Assembly (NCBI GenBank): GCA_965242725.1
Contig: CBDESZ010000030.1
Span: 32,001-96,000 of the forward strand
Direction of reading: 5' to 3'
Source of the DNA: Alkalispirochaeta sp.
GTDB lineage: Bacteria; Spirochaetota; Spirochaetia; DSM-27196; Alkalispirochaetaceae
Length of the DNA: 64,000 nt
The translations under genes and the position numbers were made by a program. Positions 35,478-44,054 of this stretch are shown piece by piece (position 1 is the first letter of the stretch; each line of letters starts with the position of its first letter). The notes below the pieces were generated by a model that worked only from the letters and a program-made list of their open reading frames with translations, did not search any database and was not told where the DNA came from.

Positions 35478-37742
35478 TCAGATATCTCCCATATAGTCGT
35501 CGCTCCCGGCGATTCGTTCCAGGGGTGTATACGCCGGAAGAAATTGCGCAGTCGCTCCCGTCTCAAAGCGAACCAGAACGACCGCTTCCGTTCCGGAGTA
35601 CCACGCCTTGGTGACGATGCCCTGACCGTAATTGTCATGGTATACAGCCGTACCCCGGGGAAAGGGATGGTCAACGTCTCCGGCACCCCGGCCTGCACGG
35701 AGTGCGGAAAGGGCCCGTCTCTGCGCATTGTGAGCGGATCCGTATCCCCCTGCTGAATCGGTTTCCACCGTCACGAGTTCCGGGGGAATTTCCGAGAGGA
35801 ACCGCGACGGAAGCAGGTCGGTCATACGGCCGTGGACACGGCGATACCGGCATGAGGTGAGGTGCAGATCGTGTTTTGCCCGGGTAATGGCGACATAAAA
35901 GAGACGTCTCTCCTCCTCAAGTTCCTCCGGGTCGTCGTCCCGGGGAAAGAGCGTCTCCTCCAGGCCGGTGATGACGACCCGGTCAAATTCGAGCCCCTTG
36001 GTATTATGCATGGTTATGAGAATAACCCTGGCGTCGGCGTTTTCCCCCTGTTCCCGGGCACTATCGAGTTCAATTCCTTCCAGGAACTCGCTCAACCCGG
36101 CGGCCGTTGCCGGATAGAGGGAGGCGGCATTCACGAGTTCTTCAAGGTTTTGTATTTTCTGCGTTCCGGAAACTTCGTCCTGTTCCTGATGATACCGGGC
36201 GAGTCCGCTCCTATCCAGCATCTCCTCAACGATTGCGGCCAATCCGGACGGCGCGTTTTCTTCCTCTTCGTCGGCATCTGACTCCGGAACCGTCGGGGAC
36301 TCAGTCTCATCTGGAATTTCAGCGTCGGAATCGCCTGGCGCCATACCCATGCCGTTCCGTATGGATTCGACCGTCTTCAGAAACTCGGCAAGTGCTGCGG
36401 CCGCCTTCTTTGAAAGTCGGGGAATCGCGTAGTCCGCGGCGGCGGAGAGGTCGCCCCGTGCGGCGGCAAGATTGGCAAGAATTGTCTCCAGGCCCTTATT
36501 CCCGATACCCCGGGCCGGTTTGTTCACAATTCGTCTGAAACTGACTTCATCGCGGGGGTTTGCAAGAAACTTGAGGAATGCAACCGCATCTTTCACTTCC
36601 TCCCGATCGTAAAACCGAACCGCACCGATAATGCGATAAGGGATTCCCTCCCGCAACAGCGCCGTTTCAAAGGGGCGGGACTGGGCGTTGGTGCGGTAGA
36701 GGACGGCTATCTCCCCCTCCCGTCCCCGTCGTTCGTCCTCACGGACAAGTTGTATGACGTAGTCGACCTCGCTTTCGTGGTCCTCCAGGAGGACAAGGCG
36801 GGGCCGCTCACCGTCACGGCGATCGGTGAAGAGCGTCTTTCCCAGACGTCCGGCGTTGTTGGCCACCACGGCGCCGGCGAGATCGAGAATGGGCGCCGTG
36901 GAGCGATAGTTCTGCTCAAGCCTGACCACATGGGTATGGGGAAATGTCTCGGGAAAGGTCAGAATATTCTGCACTTCCGCACCGCGAAACCGATAAATCG
37001 ACTGGTCGTCGTCGCCCACGACACATACAAAGGATTCGGGATCGCTCAGTCCGTGCAGGAGCCGGTACTGGGCGACATTGGAGTCCTGATATTCATCGAC
37101 CAGAATGTAGCGAAAGCGGCTCCTGATCCGATCGGCTACAGGCGAGTCCGACTCAAGAAGCTGTACCGGTTTCATGATGAGGTCGCCGAAATCGACATTC
37201 CCGATCTCCTCCAGGCGACTCTGATACTTGCGGTACACCTCCACAAGTTCGGGGTCGTGACTGATTTCCGACAGATCGTCGTCCGGTCCGAGGCAGTAGT
37301 CTTTCGCCCTGCTGATGAGATGATAAAAGCGGGCCATCACCGCACGTTTCTGTTCGGGGTATAAGGACCGCAGCAGCGTTATCGAGTCGTCATCGTCGTA
37401 TATTGAAAATCCCCGGGGTAACCCCATCAGTGAGGCGTTTCGCCTCAGCAGCCACGCCCCGAAGGAGTGGAAGGTGCGAATCGTGACATCCGAGGCGTGT
37501 TCGACGAGTGCCGCCGCGCGCTCCCGCATCTCTCCCGCCGCCTTGTTTGTAAATGTGACGGCAAGTATGGAGCGGGGATCCACTCCCATTTCGCCTATGA
37601 GATAGGCGATCTTGACGGTTACGACCCGCGTCTTGCCGCTGCCGGCTCCTGCAAGTATCAACAGCGGTCCCGACTGATAGAGAACCGCCTCCCGCTGTGC
37701 GGGATTGAGCCCGGTAAACGCTTCCTGAAGCTCAGGCGTCAC
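35478..37742 (-). CDS. pcrA: ATP-dependent DNA helicase PcrA/UvrD
   Basis: AGAGSGKT, TFTNKAA, DEYQD, GDDDQSIY, LEQNYRS, LYRTNAQSR, KGLEF, EEERRLFYVAITRA. Confidence 0.97.
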   Translation of the reverse strand: MTPELQEAFTGLNPAQREAVLYQSGPLLILAGAGSGKTRVVTVKIAYLIGEMGVDPRSILAVTFTNKAAGEMRERAAALVEHASDVTIRTFHSFGAWLLRRNASLMGLPRGFSIYDDDDSITLLRSLYPEQKRAVMARFYHLISRAKDYCLGPDDDLSEISHDPELVEVYRKYQSRLEEIGNVDFGDLIMKPVQLLESDSPVADRIRSRFRYILVDEYQDSNVAQYRLLHGLSDPESFVCVVGDDDQSIYRFRGAEVQNILTFPETFPHTHVVRLEQNYRSTAPILDLAGAVVANNAGRLGKTLFTDRRDGERPRLVLLEDHESEVDYVIQLVREDERRGREGEIAVLYRTNAQSRPFETALLREGIPYRIIGAVRFYDREEVKDAVAFLKFLANPRDEVSFRRIVNKPARGIGNKGLETILANLAAARGDLSAAADYAIPRLSKKAAAALAEFLKTVESIRNGMGMAPGDSDAEIPDETESPTVPESDADEEEENAPSGLAAIVEEMLDRSGLARYHQEQDEVSGTQKIQNLEELVNAASLYPATAAGLSEFLEGIELDSAREQGENADARVILITMHNTKGLEFDRVVITGLEETLFPRDDDPEELEEERRLFYVAITRAKHDLHLTSCRYRRVHGRMTDLLPSRFLSEIPPELVTVETDSAGGYGSAHNAQRRALSALRAGRGAGDVDHPFPRGTAVYHDNYGQGIVTKAWYSGTEAVVLVRFETGATAQFLPAYTPLERIAGSDDYMGDI

Positions 37743-38577
37743 CGCCGGCTGCTCCTTTTAGGTCACCCTCCGCCTCGACGGGTTTCCCATCCGCACGATT
37801 CTCTTCGTCACGAGTCTCCTCGTCACGAGTCTCCTCGTCACGAGTCTCCTCGTCACGATTCTCTTTGTCGGGATGCGCTCCCACAACGGCGCCCTTCCCC
37901 GATCCTGCGGCGTATGCCGTCTCTTCCAGCCAGTCCCGGAACGCCGTCATCTTTTCTGCGACGGTACCGACCCTGGGAATCACAAAAAGATACGCCCGTT
38001 CCTCCTGGGGAATGACCGCGGCGTGACGAATCGTTCCGGCATCTCCGAGGCGATTCATAAGGTTTTCCATCCACTTCCGTGACCGTTCCGATGTGGTGTA
38101 GAGGTGGAAGCGCCGAGTCCCCCACGTCACCTCTTCCTTCCGTAACGCTGCGGCGTTTTCAATCCGGTTACCCATCATTCGCTCAAAGCGCGGCTCCACG
38201 AGATGTGCTTCCTCGTTTATTGCCTTGCCCCTCTTACTGTAAAAAAAGAAGGTTTGCATACGGTCAAAGCGGCGCGTCAGCAGCGATACCGGCAGGTAAA
38301 GAAGGCTCTGCCGGGGAAGGATCGTCAACGTCGCGTCGATGCGTCGAATCGATCGCATGTTTCCGGGAACGATATTTGCGTGATACCCCGTCTGACCGCC
38401 GATATTGGTGAATTGCTGATCCTTCGCTTTAAAGACCTGCAGGAGCGGATCGAGGGCGTCCATGACGACGCGCCGATTGTATTTGCGGCCAAAGAGATAG
38501 CCGAAGGTCAATAAAAGGGAAAAGGCGATCAGAAAGTAGAACGCCGGTGTATAGACGAGATTTTCATACTGAAACAT
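37732..38577 (-). CDS. Single-pass membrane protein, paralogue of 41699..42349 (CCDC47/DUF1682-like by eye)
   Basis: N-terminal TM followed by YLFGRKYNRR; LTILPRQSLLYLP motif; SD AGGAG. Confidence 0.8.
   Translation of the reverse strand: MFQYENLVYTPAFYFLIAFSLLLTFGYLFGRKYNRRVVMDALDPLLQVFKAKDQQFTNIGGQTGYHANIVPGNMRSIRRIDATLTILPRQSLLYLPVSLLTRRFDRMQTFFFYSKRGKAINEEAHLVEPRFERMMGNRIENAAALRKEEVTWGTRRFHLYTTSERSRKWMENLMNRLGDAGTIRHAAVIPQEERAYLFVIPRVGTVAEKMTAFRDWLEETAYAAGSGKGAVVGAHPDKENRDEETRDEETRDEETRDEENRADGKPVEAEGDLKGAAGGDA
37790..37864. repeat. 15-bp coding tandem repeat (three exact plus two degenerate copies) encoding (DEETR)n
   Basis: TCGTCACGAGTCTCC at 37805, 37820 and 37835; variants at 37790 and 37850. 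Confidence 0.95.
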
Positions 38578-38586
38578 CGGTTCTCC

Positions 38587-39510
38587 TCACGGAAACAAAG
38601 TGGTCAGGTCGTATCCTATTTCATAGGACTTTTCCCGTCGATAGGGTTCCCAGGGAATGCGGGCAAGGACGGGACGCTGTTCCATACCGTTGAAGAGCTC
38701 AGCCTCCATTTCATCGGCAATTTCTTGCAGTCCCGACGTGTACTTGTTGTTCAGCGCAACATCCACACCGATTTTCAGATCGCTCAGCCCGGTAAAAATC
38801 CGCTGGCTTTCCCGGAGACTCAGGTAATCGGGGTTGAATACGACGGCGACGCGGCTGTTCGGTCCTTCCAGGTGCTGGGCTACCGCCACGTACCGGTCAA
38901 ACAGCTCCTTCAACTTTTTCATGACCGAGTCGTCGGCCTCGTCGTAGACGAGCTTCTCCCCCTCTTCCTTGAAGACACCGGTAATGGAGTGCACCGTATG
39001 GCGTTTATCCAGAATATCCCGGCGGATGCGTCGCAGCCGATCGATCCAGGTTATGGTAATCCGCGGAAGCGCCAGAATTCGCAGAGTCAGACCGGTGGGT
39101 GGCGTATCGACAATCACCACGTCATAGTCGTCGGACGTCCTGAGCATCTTTTCCATTGTCGTCAGTGCGGCATACTCTTCAACCCCGGGCGAATACCGGA
39201 GCACCTTGAAGTAGCGATCAAGATTGAACGCCTTGGTGTAGCTGTAGACTTCGGTGAGAATATCGGTATTGCTCTGAATATACTCCTGCGCCGCCTGGTC
39301 GAGGTCCGCCTCCTGGAGGTCCAGATTCTCGGAAAAGCGCTTCCGCTTGTGAGTGAGCGTCATGCCGAAAATATCGCCCAGATTGTGGGCGGGATCAAAG
39401 GAAATGGCGAGCACTTTTTTACCCTGTCGGGAGAGCTGCCACGCCGTCGCGGCGGACATGGTGGATTTCCCGACGCCGCCTTTACCCGTAAAAAATATCG
39501 TGTTTATCAC
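38587..39510 (-). CDS. GET3/ArsA-family SIMIBI ATPase, single domain, no cysteines
   Basis: GKGGVGKST, DPAHNL, PGVEE, DTPPTG, NNK; GTG start at 39510 after AAGGAA. Confidence 0.92.
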   Translation of the reverse strand: MINTIFFTGKGGVGKSTMSAATAWQLSRQGKKVLAISFDPAHNLGDIFGMTLTHKRKRFSENLDLQEADLDQAAQEYIQSNTDILTEVYSYTKAFNLDRYFKVLRYSPGVEEYAALTTMEKMLRTSDDYDVVIVDTPPTGLTLRILALPRITITWIDRLRRIRRDILDKRHTVHSITGVFKEEGEKLVYDEADDSVMKKLKELFDRYVAVAQHLEGPNSRVAVVFNPDYLSLRESQRIFTGLSDLKIGVDVALNNKYTSGLQEIADEMEAELFNGMEQRPVLARIPWEPYRREKSYEIGYDLTTLFP

Positions 39511-39529
39511 AATTATTCCTTTCTTCCGC

Positions 39530-39820
39530 CTACGCGTCGGCGTCAAGAGTTCCCATTATTTCGGCCAGGGCGTCGGAGGCGCTCTCCGCACGCCGGTTGA
39601 GTACCTTGATCTCCCGCTCGAGATAGGGGAGAAGTTCCACGGCGATAAAAGAGGGCGGTGACGGCATCCCGGTAAAGGAGCCGAGCAGCAACAGGACAAA
39701 CATGTTCTCCAGTTCCCGGGCTTCATAATTGGTGAGGGCGACAACCCGCTCCCGGTGTGCCTGGTCTATGCCCCGTACCAACGCCCGGACCAATCGAAAA
39801 AAGCGTCGGATCAAATTCAT
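39530..39820 (-). CDS. Small CstA/ArsA-associated protein (cory-CC-star-like, lacking the terminal Cys-Cys)
   Basis: ARELENMFVLLLLGSFTGMPSPP..VELLPYL core; located between cstA and the ATPase. Confidence 0.75.
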   Translation of the reverse strand: MNLIRRFFRLVRALVRGIDQAHRERVVALTNYEARELENMFVLLLLGSFTGMPSPPSFIAVELLPYLEREIKVLNRRAESASDALAEIMGTLDADA

Positions 39821-39943
39821 GGCTGGATCCTTCCCTGTGTGGATAAAAATAGGGCATCGGTTCCGTCCGGCAATGATCCGGATGACGCCGATGCCCGGAG
39901 GGACTCCCGGCCGGCTCGCATCGCCGCACCGGGAGTAATGCTT

Positions 39944-41671
39944 CTACGCTTCTGAAGTCTCGGCGTAGGGGTTATTGCGGGTCTTCACGAAGTCTATGAT
40001 GAAGACGACGTTCAACACGAGCATAACCGCTTCAATGATGAATACAACAGTGTTGGTCAGCGCATTATTCTGAATAGCCGGCAGCACAACGACAAACATG
40101 TGCCAGATGATGGCGGCGGTAACGGTGATCCATAGGAGATACGCCGGAATAAGTGCCATCGTCGCATTGCTCTTCAGCCGTTTGGTGACCCATGCCGTTC
40201 CGGTAAGAAGGGCGATGGAGGCGATCAGCTGGTTACCGGCGCCAAAGCTGGGCCAGAGAATGCTGAAGGCGCCGCTGTAGCCGAGGTACACACCAATGGC
40301 TGCGGGAATAATCGACGCGGTCCAGCGGTTGGAGAGGAAATTGTACGCAGCGTCGGCGCGTCCCTTCAGGGGCAGCGCGATCTCCGCCAGGGTGTACCGG
40401 GCGAGACGATTGGTAGTATCCAGGGTAGTCATGGCAAACCCTGCGACCCACATACCCGCGACGAGCTTCACAAACTCGGTCGGGATAAAGCGCAGCCACG
40501 TATCGGCAACCATCGCGGCGTAGGAGTTGGTGAACATGGAAGCCCCACCAAGACCGGCGGCGGCGCTGGCAGGAGTGTACATGTCACCCCAGTTAGCGGC
40601 GGTGATTTCCTGGCCCGCACCCTGCATGAGACCGAGACCGTAACCGGCAACGGCGACAACGACGATGGTGGAAAGGAACCCTTCAACGAGCATACCGCCG
40701 TATCCGATGACGAGACCGGAGGTCTCCTTGGAAATCTGCTTACTTGTCGTCCCTGACCCGACCAGGGCGTGGAACCCGCTCAGGCTTCCGCAGGCGATGA
40801 TCAGCGGAATGACCGGCCAGAAGGGACTCGGCTTGCCGCCGGAAACGATCGGCGCAAAGCGGGTAAACGCGGGAGCGGAGAAACCGGTGAAGCTTGACAG
40901 TGCGGCTACACCACCAAGAATGAGACCGATGTACAGCAGGTAGCTGTTCAGGTAGTCCCGGGGCTGGAGAAGCACGTTCACCGGAATCGCCGCGGCGATG
41001 ATGATGTAGGCAAACATGATGAAGAACCACGCTTCCCGGCTGGCGACGATGGGCATCTTGTCGGCGAGGTAGATGGTGAGCAGCAGCATCACCAGACCGA
41101 TCGCCGAGGCGAGTGCGAAATTCATCTTCACCCGGTAAATGAGCACACCCAGAATGAGGGCGGCAACGAGGAGGAGGACGAAGTTCGTCGGAATCGCGGG
41201 ATTGTTCAGGAAGAGTCCGCCGATAACCGCGGAGAACGCACCGACGATGAGGATGAGAATCATGAAGACGAGCCAGTAAAAGAGCTTGCCCGTACGCTTC
41301 GTGATCAGGTCGGAGGCGACAAATTGAATCGACTTGCCGTCGTATCGGACGGAAGCCATGATCGCCAGATAATCGTGGACGGCGCCGATAAAAATGTTAC
41401 CGAACCATATCCACGCCAGAGAGGGTAACCATCCCCATGCCATGGCGATAACGGGACCCACGATAGGTGCGGCACCCGCCACGGATGCAAAATGGTGACC
41501 AAACAGTACCGGAGTCTTGGCCGGGATGTAATCAACCCCGTCAAACAACCGGCTGGCCGGAGTTTCGATCTTGTCGTCCGCCTTGACTACACTGGTCTCC
41601 AGCTTCTTTCCGTACAGAAAGTAGAGCGCAATGTACACCACGACGGCGACAACAACAATTATTGAGGACAT
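39944..41671 (-). CDS. cstA: Carbon starvation CstA-family transporter
   Basis: TPA...DGVDY, FGHHFASVAGAAPIVGP, GAVHDY, QPRDY, IACGSLSGFH, TTLDT.NR, WPSFGAGNQL. Confidence 0.96.
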   Translation of the reverse strand: MSSIIVVVAVVVYIALYFLYGKKLETSVVKADDKIETPASRLFDGVDYIPAKTPVLFGHHFASVAGAAPIVGPVIAMAWGWLPSLAWIWFGNIFIGAVHDYLAIMASVRYDGKSIQFVASDLITKRTGKLFYWLVFMILILIVGAFSAVIGGLFLNNPAIPTNFVLLLVAALILGVLIYRVKMNFALASAIGLVMLLLTIYLADKMPIVASREAWFFIMFAYIIIAAAIPVNVLLQPRDYLNSYLLYIGLILGGVAALSSFTGFSAPAFTRFAPIVSGGKPSPFWPVIPLIIACGSLSGFHALVGSGTTSKQISKETSGLVIGYGGMLVEGFLSTIVVVAVAGYGLGLMQGAGQEITAANWGDMYTPASAAAGLGGASMFTNSYAAMVADTWLRFIPTEFVKLVAGMWVAGFAMTTLDTTNRLARYTLAEIALPLKGRADAAYNFLSNRWTASIIPAAIGVYLGYSGAFSILWPSFGAGNQLIASIALLTGTAWVTKRLKSNATMALIPAYLLWITVTAAIIWHMFVVVLPAIQNNALTNTVVFIIEAVMLVLNVVFIIDFVKTRNNPYAETSEA

Positions 41672-41698
41672 ATAACCTCCTGAAAGAGTAGGTGTGGT

Positions 41699-42349
41699 TT
41701 AACCTAGCGTACCCCCCCTTTCTGCTCCGGTCAAGAAAAAAACAATCGAGTCCACCCGTTCCAGGTCCAATTTTGTCAAATCCGGATGAGGTGTCAGAAA
41801 AAACGTCACAATATGTTTGCGGGAATCCAGAGTAATTTGGTTGAGATTTTTGATAGAACTGATATTCGGCACGATCGAACGCAAGCGTTCCGCGATGATC
41901 GGATTGAAATAGTAGAGATTGTAGACCGCTCCATTCTGCTCTACCACCTCCTCCTGCCAGTCGTCGTCATGTTCCACGGCGGACCAGCGGGAAACCTGAC
42001 AACTGGTGTGCACGAGCGTTCCCACGCCCGGAGGGAGCATATCGGCGCAGTGATAGGTAAGTTTCAGCAGGTCCTGTCTGCCGATCATACGGGCGATCGG
42101 CAGGTACAGGGGCGCATACCGGGGCAGCAGCGTCAGGACGCCTTCCACCAGTTCTATCGGTCCGGCAAGATGGTACTCAAAGCCGTACCCCAGGTCCCGG
42201 CCGAGGGTCGCATACTCCGCGGACACCGGCGCAAAATGTTCTTCAAGCATGGAAATGTGGCGGCGGGCCCTGAGCTGATTGCGCCGACGGCCCATACCCA
42301 CCCCAATGACGAGGGCAATTGTGAACACGATAAGTATTGAGAATCCCAC
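41699..42349 (-). CDS. Single-pass membrane protein, paralogue of 37732..38577
   Basis: N-terminal TM followed by GRRRNQLRA; LTLLPRYAPLYLPIARMIGRQD motif. Confidence 0.8.
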   Translation of the reverse strand: MGFSILIVFTIALVIGVGMGRRRNQLRARRHISMLEEHFAPVSAEYATLGRDLGYGFEYHLAGPIELVEGVLTLLPRYAPLYLPIARMIGRQDLLKLTYHCADMLPPGVGTLVHTSCQVSRWSAVEHDDDWQEEVVEQNGAVYNLYYFNPIIAERLRSIVPNISSIKNLNQITLDSRKHIVTFFLTPHPDLTKLDLERVDSIVFFLTGAERGGTLG

Positions 42350-42413
42350 TGAACCATCCTACACCCGATCAAATAGCTTGACACGATGAATGATGCGACC
42401 CATTCTCAAAAAA

Positions 42414-44054
42414 ATGGACCATCCTGCCCTCTCGACGGGGCTTATCACCTACATTGGTAATAAACGCTCCCTCATTCCATTCATTTCAGGTGCGCTGGAC
42501 CGTATCGAATCCGAGCGCGGACCGACCGAAACGATGGCAGACCCCTTTGCAGGTTCCGGCGTTGTGGCGCGCCTGGGTCGCCTGCGAGGGTATCGCGTCG
42601 CGGCGGGGGACCTGGAAGTCTATACCCGTCCCTTTGGAAGGGCCTTTCTTGAAGTAGATCGGGACGAGGTGGACGCCGTCTTCTCCGAATCGGGAGGGTA
42701 TCAGGAGACCATTTCATACCTCAACAGCCTCACCCGTCCCGAGAGGAGCGACGATTGCCTCTTTTCCGCGCATTACGCTCCGTCGGAGACACAATCGGCC
42801 GATCCGGAACGTGAGCGCATGTTCTTCACGAGGGAAAACGCCCTTCGCATTGACGCAATGCTTGCGGCGATTCATCGCGATCTGCCCCTCACACCGCAGG
42901 GACGGGACATTCTCCTGGCAAGCCTCCTCGTGGAAATGAGCATACACAACAACACCTCGGGAGTGATGAAGGGTTTTCATCACGGATGGGGCGGGAGAGG
43001 GGGCGACGCCCTCGCCAGGATCATGGCGCCGGTCATGCTGGAAGAACTACCCTTCATCGACGGCCCGCGGGGTTATACCCATGTCGGACCGGCTGATTCC
43101 CTCGCGACGGCGGCGCGGGACTCCATGGGTATCGATTCTTTTGACGTGGTCTACGCCGACCCTCCCTACAACATCCACCAGTACGGCGCCAATTATCACC
43201 TTCTCACGACGGCGGTCCGATGGGACTTTTACGATCCCGGTCCGGTGGAACGGGGAGCCCGGGCGGGGATCAGACGTGACCATAACAAGTCCGACTTCTG
43301 CAGCCGCCGCGGTGACCGCGCACGGGTCGCCTTTGAGAGCTTCCTTGATTCCATTACGACCCGGACCGTACTCGTTTCATACAATAACGACGGTATCATC
43401 GACGCGCCGACGATGGCCGAAATCCTTATGGAGGATGGAATTAATACCGTTATTCCTCTCGTGCGGGAGCACCACAAGTTCCGCGGCGGTAAAGCGACAC
43501 AGAGCGCCCTTCGGACAGACGAGTATCTTTTTATTGTCTATCGGGGGAAGCGTCAGAGCAGCACTGAACGGGACGGACTGCGGCGATACATGGAAGACCT
43601 CGCACTGCGGCGGGAGCTCAATGACCGGTTCATCCTTCCTTCACGATGGCAGGGGCAGGACCGGTCCGCCCGCTACAATAAGGACTCTTCCACGTGGATT
43701 CTGAAAACCGGCAGCGGCGGTCACATTCAGCTGTCCGACGATTTTCGGGTGCGTCACGTCTCCCGGGACAATGCTGATACGGGACAATCCGACGAATGGC
43801 ACCGAATCGTGAAGGTCGCGCGATTAAGCAGCGGCACAATGGTGGAGACTGTGGATGAACTCATACGACATGAAATGTATGACGCCGCAATCAGACAGCT
43901 TCGCCGATTGAAGATAAAGAAGTATCGCAGCGACTTCCTCCGGATCGTCCGGGAGCTGCGCCACAGGGAGCTGACATCGGCGGGCAGGCGGCGTCTGTCC
44001 GCCCTCTATACCCGCGTCACCGGCGAGGTCCTGGAGGATGATGGGATTTACTGA
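42414..44054 (+). CDS. DNA adenine (N6) methyltransferase, alpha/D12-like, with C-terminal extension
   Basis: YIGNK, DPFAGSG (motif I), ADPPY (motif IV), VSYN; start ATG 42414. Confidence 0.88.
   Translation: MDHPALSTGLITYIGNKRSLIPFISGALDRIESERGPTETMADPFAGSGVVARLGRLRGYRVAAGDLEVYTRPFGRAFLEVDRDEVDAVFSESGGYQETISYLNSLTRPERSDDCLFSAHYAPSETQSADPERERMFFTRENALRIDAMLAAIHRDLPLTPQGRDILLASLLVEMSIHNNTSGVMKGFHHGWGGRGGDALARIMAPVMLEELPFIDGPRGYTHVGPADSLATAARDSMGIDSFDVVYADPPYNIHQYGANYHLLTTAVRWDFYDPGPVERGARAGIRRDHNKSDFCSRRGDRARVAFESFLDSITTRTVLVSYNNDGIIDAPTMAEILMEDGINTVIPLVREHHKFRGGKATQSALRTDEYLFIVYRGKRQSSTERDGLRRYMEDLALRRELNDRFILPSRWQGQDRSARYNKDSSTWILKTGSGGHIQLSDDFRVRHVSRDNADTGQSDEWHRIVKVARLSSGTMVETVDELIRHEMYDAAIRQLRRLKIKKYRSDFLRIVRELRHRELTSAGRRRLSALYTRVTGEVLEDDGIY

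Follow-up and report, generated by a model that had tools for sequence, protein, structure and literature searches.

A run of five genes in a spirochaete genome raises the question of why a CstA-family transporter should be encoded together with a small protein, CstX, a single-domain ATPase, and two copies of a single-span protein, CstY. The run lies on the minus strand of a 64,000-nucleotide (nt) stretch of Alkalispirochaeta sp. DNA (assembly GCA_965242725.1, contig CBDESZ010000030.1, positions 32,001-96,000, forward strand), hereafter the window; the genome that carries it is 92% complete. Operons of this type have been known since 2010, when Castillo & Saier described them from sequence: cstA occurred with an ArsA homologue 26 times, cstX was found in 24 cases and a single-transmembrane (TM) CstY of ~210 amino acids (aa) in five archaea, and the ATPase was proposed to energise CstA through CstX (PMC2963123). 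The window operon is of the kind described there (ArsA clusters 14-18): cstA, a ~90-aa cstX, and a single-domain ArsA homologue of the ~310-330-aa type without the ArsA cysteines stand together with cstY, and the operon holds no ars genes. Unlike in the 2010 account, where CstY was archaeal only and had no family, CstY here is bacterial, duplicated, and widespread, and has a predicted CCDC47 fold. This family assignment is the new part. A preliminary description of the window had proposed a likeness to CCDC47 (DUF1682) and had built on it a GET/PAT-type insertion system; the likeness was borne out, and the insertion system was not. Among the best literature matches, with subscription journals mostly uncovered, nothing linked CstY to CCDC47 or TtfA or reported a prokaryotic CCDC47, and we found no bench study of the operon in the literature searched.

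CstY is predicted to share the fold of CCDC47

The two CstY paralogues, A and B, align at 27% identity over 97 aa (BLASTP, E 4e-8), and the profiles of their families match over 203 columns (HHalign, 99.4%, E 6e-22); by these comparisons they are homologous to each other, as had been proposed from shared motifs. Neither gave a full-length match to a Pfam or NCBIfam family. A library search placed 256 clusters at 50% identity in the family, and just 3 of the best 150 of these exceed 260 aa. For the alignment used below (A3), members were chosen at 190-260 aa, a filter passed by 118 of 147 library matches, and its 112 aligned members measure 194-244 aa; a quick tree of these 112 rows (18 of 109 branches starred) served only for picking subsets. 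Paralogue A scores 184 bits against the A3 profile and has 8 other homologues. The last ~60 residues of B form a low-complexity tail whose repeat is not common to its relatives; at the DNA level it is a 15-nt repeat of about five copies encoding DEETR/DEENR (window 37790-37870, minus strand), which runs into the start of a uvrD-like gene. No longer or fused CstY forms were found among 7,994 candidates of 428-2000 aa that were scored, which is weak evidence. On a single 3.5-kb contig, a 323-aa protein (P0196) joins an N-terminal part like the C-terminal half of the ATPase to a CstY domain; it may be an assembly artefact.

We take A and B to be the family named CstY in 2010, an assignment by description that fits their size, single TM helix, position, and the named archaeal members of the family; archaeal-looking loci with the same gene order and a doubled cstX also fit the name. 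All 112 aligned members carry a net positive charge directly after the TM helix. By the positive-inside rule, the positively charged flank of a TM helix sits in the cytoplasm, so the predicted topology of CstY is N-out with the globular domain in the cytoplasm, as in CCDC47.

To compare folds, we modelled residues 1-216 of paralogue B with 46 relatives (predicted local distance difference test, pLDDT, 92.7; predicted template modelling score, pTM, 0.85). Foldseek gave two matches at E<=0.001, 9I78 chain 4 (2e-7) and 7TM3 chain 4 (7e-7), with 6W6L chain 7 at rank 8. In an exhaustive comparison with 48,161 chains, just three reached Z>=8: 7TUT chain 4 (Z 16.1; root-mean-square deviation, rmsd, 3.6; 203 residues aligned at ~10% identity), 9I78 chain 4 (Z 15.0, rmsd 3.3, 201 aligned), and TtfA, 6T84 (Z 9.4, rmsd 4.1, 144 aligned); the next best stood at Z 6.4. 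Residues 9-216 of B superpose on residues 135-389 of 7TUT/7TM3 chain 4 (rmsd 3.5-3.6) and on residues 76-359 of 9I78. Chain 4 of 9I78 is CCDC47 by its numbering, since PMC12572126 models residues 76-447, the chain is 371 residues long, and the match begins at 76; the same structural match suggests that chain 4 of 7TUT and 7TM3 is CCDC47 as well. On predicted models, CstY thus resembles CCDC47 (PF07946; 7TUT, 7TM3, 6W6L, 9I78) in having one TM helix, then basic residues, and then the same globular fold of ~200 residues. Paralogue B alone was modelled, and the CCDC47-type assignment extends to A through the A-B profile match.

An Atlas model of P0190, a crenarchaeal CstY member, is independent of the B model and matches a CCDC47-named cluster (PF07946) with a template modelling (TM) score of 0.75 over 203 residues. 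By features, the nearest Pfam-bearing Atlas clusters of P0190 are CCDC47 (0.77) and TtfA (0.76), which are leads only. Atlas also listed for P0190 a bacterial DUF3137 (TM score 0.58) and a Prok-RING_1-bearing cluster (TM score 0.60), which may belong to the CCDC47/TtfA fold group. At the level of Pfam, PF07946 was matched by 43 of the 46 close relatives at E<=1 (best E 3.3e-5), every other family appearing once, and by 39 of the 112 diverse CstY members at E<=0.1. In several relatives, the match spans residues 15-116 and covers both motifs flagged in the preliminary description. Scores given singly lie below the gathering threshold of 27.7 bits: B has 15.4 bits, and the best of 21 singly listed relatives has 21.6.

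The likeness could instead reflect convergence on a common alpha/beta fold, among genes that share no job. In keeping with this, identity is ~10%, the Pfam matches fall under the cut-off, and a search of PDB sequences with the A3 profile found no CCDC47 at E<=10; searches with the A1, A3, and CstX profiles likewise returned neither CCDC47 nor another credible match. Against it, the structural match runs over the whole length including the TM helix and lies far above unrelated rows, CCDC47 is the only recurrent Pfam match, the independent Atlas model agrees, and gene order is kept from spirochaetes to archaea. We therefore consider convergence highly improbable, and regard CstY and CCDC47 as very probably true homologues.

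cstY tracks cstA across genomes

We then surveyed loci around cstY, taking the best 80 of 219 genome loci and the best 80 of 163 metagenome loci, both sets being rich in kin. cstA, cstX, and the ATPase gene all stood beside cstY in 69 of the 80 genome loci and 60 of the 80 metagenome loci, confirming the expected co-occurrence. Contig ends account for 28 of the 31 misses (10 genome, 18 metagenome); the other three are a locus with cstA and cstY alone (L075) and two with CstX and the ATPase but no adjacent cstA (L198, L199). Two cstY copies were present in 26 of the 80 genome loci. In an even sample of the window's phylum, cstY occurred in 16 of 301 genomes: the window genome, 8 with full modules, 3 with cstY beside cstA without the ATPase, 3 with orphans, and 1 with a contig-end fragment. 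In the phylum of another locus (L028), sampled likewise, it occurred in 14 of 301, namely in 10 full modules, 1 truncated at a contig end, 1 locus of just cstA-cstY, and 2 that belong to a distant subfamily. A tblastn search of plasmids with two CstY proteins gave zero matches.

cstY adjoins cstA with no ATPase and/or CstX found in L075, L109-L111, and L246. No ATPase was found in the genome of L075, and neither CstX nor the ATPase was found in the two cstA-cstY genomes checked for the pair of them, G021 and G132. Upstream of cstA in L109-L111, on the cstA strand and divergent from cstY, lies an unannotated gene for a 103-116-aa protein (L109:5872-6222, L110:6983-7294, L111:5744-6055) with no match to a Pfam family; it may replace CstX.

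Some loci carry further genes. Between the ATPase and cstY, 36 loci hold a gene of ~97 aa like DUF59/FeS_assembly_P (PF01883), mostly Cys-free (for example, L130:4696-4998, L151:4708-4998, and L182:4656-4949), which is absent from the window; its product is a possible fifth component. In L060, a second ATPase of the same clade (1771-2751) is divergent from cstA, and a second cstY is inverted downstream. A distant CstY subfamily (L241:5745-11292, L240:6055-6693) matches A3 at E 9e-8 (HHalign 89.6%) and has its own CstX-like gene. In L241, this CstX-CstY pair converges on a two-ATPase cstA operon, and the sister locus L240 has cstA and cstX relics. We considered whether the pair serves a major facilitator superfamily (MFS) transporter in L241, and rejected this because the MFS gene in L240 has a terminator-like hairpin after it and because the two-ATPase cstA operon converges on the pair.

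The ATPase is Get3-like rather than of the arsenite-pump type

For the ATPase gene, the most probable start is GTG 39510, which is preceded by an AGGA site, and not the listed TTG 39546. As previously described, the protein has no cysteine, a single domain, and a long helix after DTPPTG, here predicted as continuous over residues 139-177. It scores 186 bits against TIGR00345 (cut-off 135) and is the only one of seven matches in the genome above that cut-off; against TIGR04291 (arsenical pump) it scores 98 bits, with a cut-off of 650. Both in sequence and in the fold of its model (pLDDT 90.3), its best PDB matches are the archaeal Get3 proteins 3ZQ6 and 3UG6/7 (fold E 3.6e-22, TM score 0.74), and the first ArsA appears at fold rank 42. 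The alignment runs through the TRC40 insert of 3ZQ6 and 3UG6, including the extended helix, and it is this insert that distinguishes Get3 from ArsA (PMC6593721). The marks of arsenite-pump ArsA, namely metalloid cysteines, tandem domains, lack of a TRC40 insert, and an ars operon, were not found. The window does hold an ars cluster (methyltransferase, ArsP, ArsC-like LMWPc, Acr3-like SBF) at ~54.4-59.0 kb, without arsA, as had been noted.

Unlike Get3/TRC40, the module ATPases (n = 155) have a CxxC motif in 1 case and CxC in none, and 57 of them are Cys-free. The helix-7/8 segment in 25 sampled ATPases has 0-5 Met and a common basic W..RL..IRR.ILEKR pattern, so that the CxxC zinc dimer motif, the CxC motif, and the Met-rich groove of Get3 are missing; none of the three is universal among Get3 proteins (PMC6593721). 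A quick 57-row tree places 37 single-domain ATPases, almost all of them encoded in cstA/cstX loci, in a single clade (SH-like approximate likelihood ratio test, SH-aLRT, 99). Separate from it stand 10 halves of ArsA-type proteins with two domains (99) and 7 proteins of ~400 aa (100); a tandem ATPase pair from another type of cstA operon falls outside the 37-member clade. The tree was midpoint-drawn and included Get3 from neither archaea nor eukaryotes, so it speaks for separation from ArsA only and says nothing on origin. Together, these comparisons support a Get3-like ATPase, and they agree with the preliminary description. None of the three outcomes set beforehand as counting against that description, namely no CCDC47 similarity, grouping of the ATPase with ArsA, or no co-occurrence of the paralogues with cstA and the ATPase, came true.

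The proposal of Castillo & Saier, in which the ATPase acts via CstX to drive CstA as ArsA drives ArsB, would leave CstY a non-essential auxiliary. It draws on the co-evolution of CstA, CstX, and the ATPase in 26 operons (PMC2963123), on Walker A and DTPPTG being invariant or nearly so in 89 ATPases, and on CstX and the ATPase travelling jointly. The existence of ATPase-free loci weakens it, with CstA accompanied by CstY alone in L075 and L246; in addition, the ATPase is nearer to Get3 than to ArsA, and the characterised family member BtsT is a pyruvate/H+ symporter according to the family literature. We think it quite improbable that the ATPase energises transport in this way.

Features specific to PAT are missing

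CstX matches the cory-CC-star model NF041419 at 27 bits (cut-off 80), as do 87 of its 89 relatives at E<=1, and a relative is DUF7990 (Atlas score 0.96). Its invariant residues are E36, F41, G51, P55, E70, and D83. The gene is present as described before, but the label of membrane protein given to it is uncertain because its hydrophobicity is only marginal: the best 19-residue Kyte-Doolittle window is 1.34, and 20 of the 89 relatives exceed 1.6. YbdD Pfam families did not match CstX.

In eukaryotes, CCDC47's C-terminal latch helices hold Sec61 closed at the ribosome exit, and Asterix binds the TM domain (TMD) of CCDC47 (PMC12572126); within PAT, the binding of substrate helices falls to Asterix and not to CCDC47 (PMC13261788). 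The match of CstY to CCDC47 stops at residue 389 in 7TM3/7TUT and at residue 359 in 9I78, which is modelled to 447. The CstY family therefore ends where the latch begins, the tail of B being unconserved, and unlike CCDC47 it also lacks the N-terminal lumenal part and is tied to one transporter gene. Searched at E<=1, the 92%-complete genome gave no Asterix (PF03669), and none of the 89 CstX relatives matched it. The same genome gave no EMC3/TMCO1-family gene in a search with PF01956, and no Oxa1-type Get1/EMC3 gene as in GET was found, the Get1 and Get2 families themselves being unsearched; YidC is present. Because the latch helices are absent and neither Asterix nor an EMC3/TMCO1-family gene was found, the operon does not encode a PAT complex. 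A 2022 paper describes prokaryotes as lacking PAT components (PMC9630114), and a 2026 review sees no obvious bacterial homologue of PAT (PMC13261788).

Could the genes nonetheless form a dedicated biogenesis kit, in which a Get3-like dimer shields helices of CstA or CstX on the way to the membrane and CstY, with an Asterix-like CstX, chaperones CstA and then releases it? The fold of CstY is nearer to CCDC47 than to TtfA, the best structural matches of the ATPase are archaeal Get3/TRC40, a small hydrophobic protein next to a CCDC47 repeats the PAT layout, and such a kit explains the cstA linkage as well and agrees with the Get3 groove, with orphan cstY genes suggesting other clients. Apart from the missing PAT features, CstA is not tail-anchored, E. 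coli CstA works with YbdD, and the ATPase and CstY are separable across loci. We regard a biogenesis kit as possible but doubtful. A bolder version, which we consider unlikely, makes CstY an ancestor-type CCDC47 of prokaryotes, with the Get3 dimer delivering hydrophobic helices to a CstX-CstY pair that works as a proto-PAT intramembrane chaperone, its clients being CstA and possibly further multipass proteins; if it were true, eukaryotes would have added the latch helices to recruit CCDC47 to Sec61.

The operon and its transporter

All five open reading frames of the run were found where they had been placed (Table 1). In the order A-cstA-cstX-ATPase-B, the intergenic gaps are 27, 123, 19, and 9 nt, and the 3' end of B overlaps the uvrD-like start at 37742. 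Promoter and terminator scans gave results at chance level. The nearest named homologues come from Alkalispirochaeta and other spirochaetes. On the opposite strand, a D12-class adenine methyltransferase gene (window 42390-44054, plus strand) begins at a distance of 40 nt from paralogue A; in L044, that gene shares the strand of paralogue A and comes after it, downstream of B, so the block has undergone rearrangement.

Table 1. Coordinates in the window and features of the five operon genes
Gene product	Window position	Strand	Features
CstY paralogue A	42349-41699	-	216 aa; one N-terminal TM helix and predicted cytoplasmic CCDC47-type globular domain; divergent second copy
CstA-family transporter	41671-39944	-	575 aa; Pfam PF02554 E 1.9e-123, profile 3-559 of 560
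CstX (cory-CC-star-like, DUF7990)	39820-39530	-	96 aa; segment of marginal hydrophobicity, interrupted by G-x-P-x-P-P; conserved acidic residues
Get3/ArsA-family ATPase, single-domain, Cys-free	39510-38587	-	307 aa from GTG; helical segment of TRC40-insert length
CstY paralogue B	38577-37732	-	281 aa; TM helix ~12-30, predicted CCDC47-fold domain to ~216, non-conserved low-complexity tail

CstA scores 197 bits against NF011590 (cut-off 1188), and no solved relative was found at E<=1. Among the genes that recur beside relatives are those for LytS/LytTR sensors (7-8 loci) and, in 8 related loci, pyruvate carboxylase B/OadA; a lactate MFS gene is another neighbour. In E. coli, BtsS/BtsR is a pyruvate-sensing system that controls BtsT, a paralogue of CstA, and pyruvate uptake by CstA depends on a small neighbour, YbdD (PMC5847655). 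The window system is like E. coli CstA-YbdD and BtsT in its transporter family, in the sensors beside operon relatives, and in the small downstream gene, which is needed in E. coli. It differs in its shorter CstA, in a CstX that lacks a YbdD Pfam match, and in the additional ATPase and CstY. From the family literature and the neighbours of relatives, uptake of pyruvate or another monocarboxylate, or of peptides, is likely.

A proposed helper role for CstY, CstX, and the ATPase

We reasoned that CstY, CstX, and the ATPase may be dedicated helper and control subunits that bind CstA and keep the transporter folded and switched on, and we judge the chances of this to be about evenly balanced. We favour it because the genes track one transporter and CstY can remain beside cstA in loci that lack the ATPase and CstX, and because the latch and Asterix are absent and TtfA, the prokaryotic protein closest to CstY in fold, partners its transporter stably. 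TtfA (6T84, PF28092) has a related fold and a similar functional length (~205 aa) and partners a multipass transporter; its residues 1-205 are necessary and sufficient for copurification with MmpL3 (PMC6593404). Unlike CstY, TtfA serves an unrelated lipid exporter, and the available portions of that paper note no ATPase partner for it.

In this helper role, CstY would use its helix and domain for stable docking on CstA, in the manner of TtfA on MmpL3, and its two copies would be subunits that either replace each other or act as a pair. CstX would serve the ATPase dimer as client or as dock at the membrane, with conserved acidic residues of CstX meeting the conserved basic helix-7/8 face of the ATPase. 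ATP turnover would then load or release CstX, thereby licensing or tuning uptake, likely of pyruvate or a related monocarboxylate. Of the complex prediction suggested in the preliminary description, a run on CstA, CstX, and CstY-B with paired alignments gave an interaction prediction score from aligned errors (ipSAE) of 0.00 twice, which is evidence neither way. Inter-protein mutual information with average product correction (MI-APC), computed on 89 paired rows (effective sequence number, Neff, 61), peaked at 5.9-6.9, within or at most ~0.3 above the shuffled maxima of 4.9-8.9, and no contact signal was taken from it.

Several observations weigh against a helper role. A dedicated assembly chaperone would account for linkage to one client just as well, the insert and the hydrophobic periodicity that define a helix-binding Get3 are retained in the ATPase, and in the models the TtfA match to CstY is more distant than the CCDC47 match. 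CstY is not obligatory, as at least five spirochaete genomes have cstA-cstX-ATPase without a detectable cstY (L112-L116). Conversely, cstY occurs away from its operon, which may point to other clients: it is an orphan in three genomes of one genus that have only a ~700-aa-type CstA (L106-L108), it is intact beside decayed cstA and cstX relics in L240, and it accompanies CstX and the ATPase without an adjacent cstA in L198 and L199. The orphan copies (L106:6165-6788, L107:5998-6639, L108:6113-6739) lie in genomes without the ATPase, flanked by what we take to be a folK-like gene and an mcsA-mcsB-clpC-like run.

Whatever its job, a bacterial and archaeal protein of ~210 residues with the helix and globular domain of CCDC47 challenges the view that prokaryotes lack this one PAT subunit. 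CstY separates an old CCDC47 core from the eukaryote-specific latch and connects CCDC47 to TtfA. The operon is also a small, genetically tractable system for the role of the CCDC47 globular domain and for the ligands of non-arsenic, Get3-like ATPases of prokaryotes.

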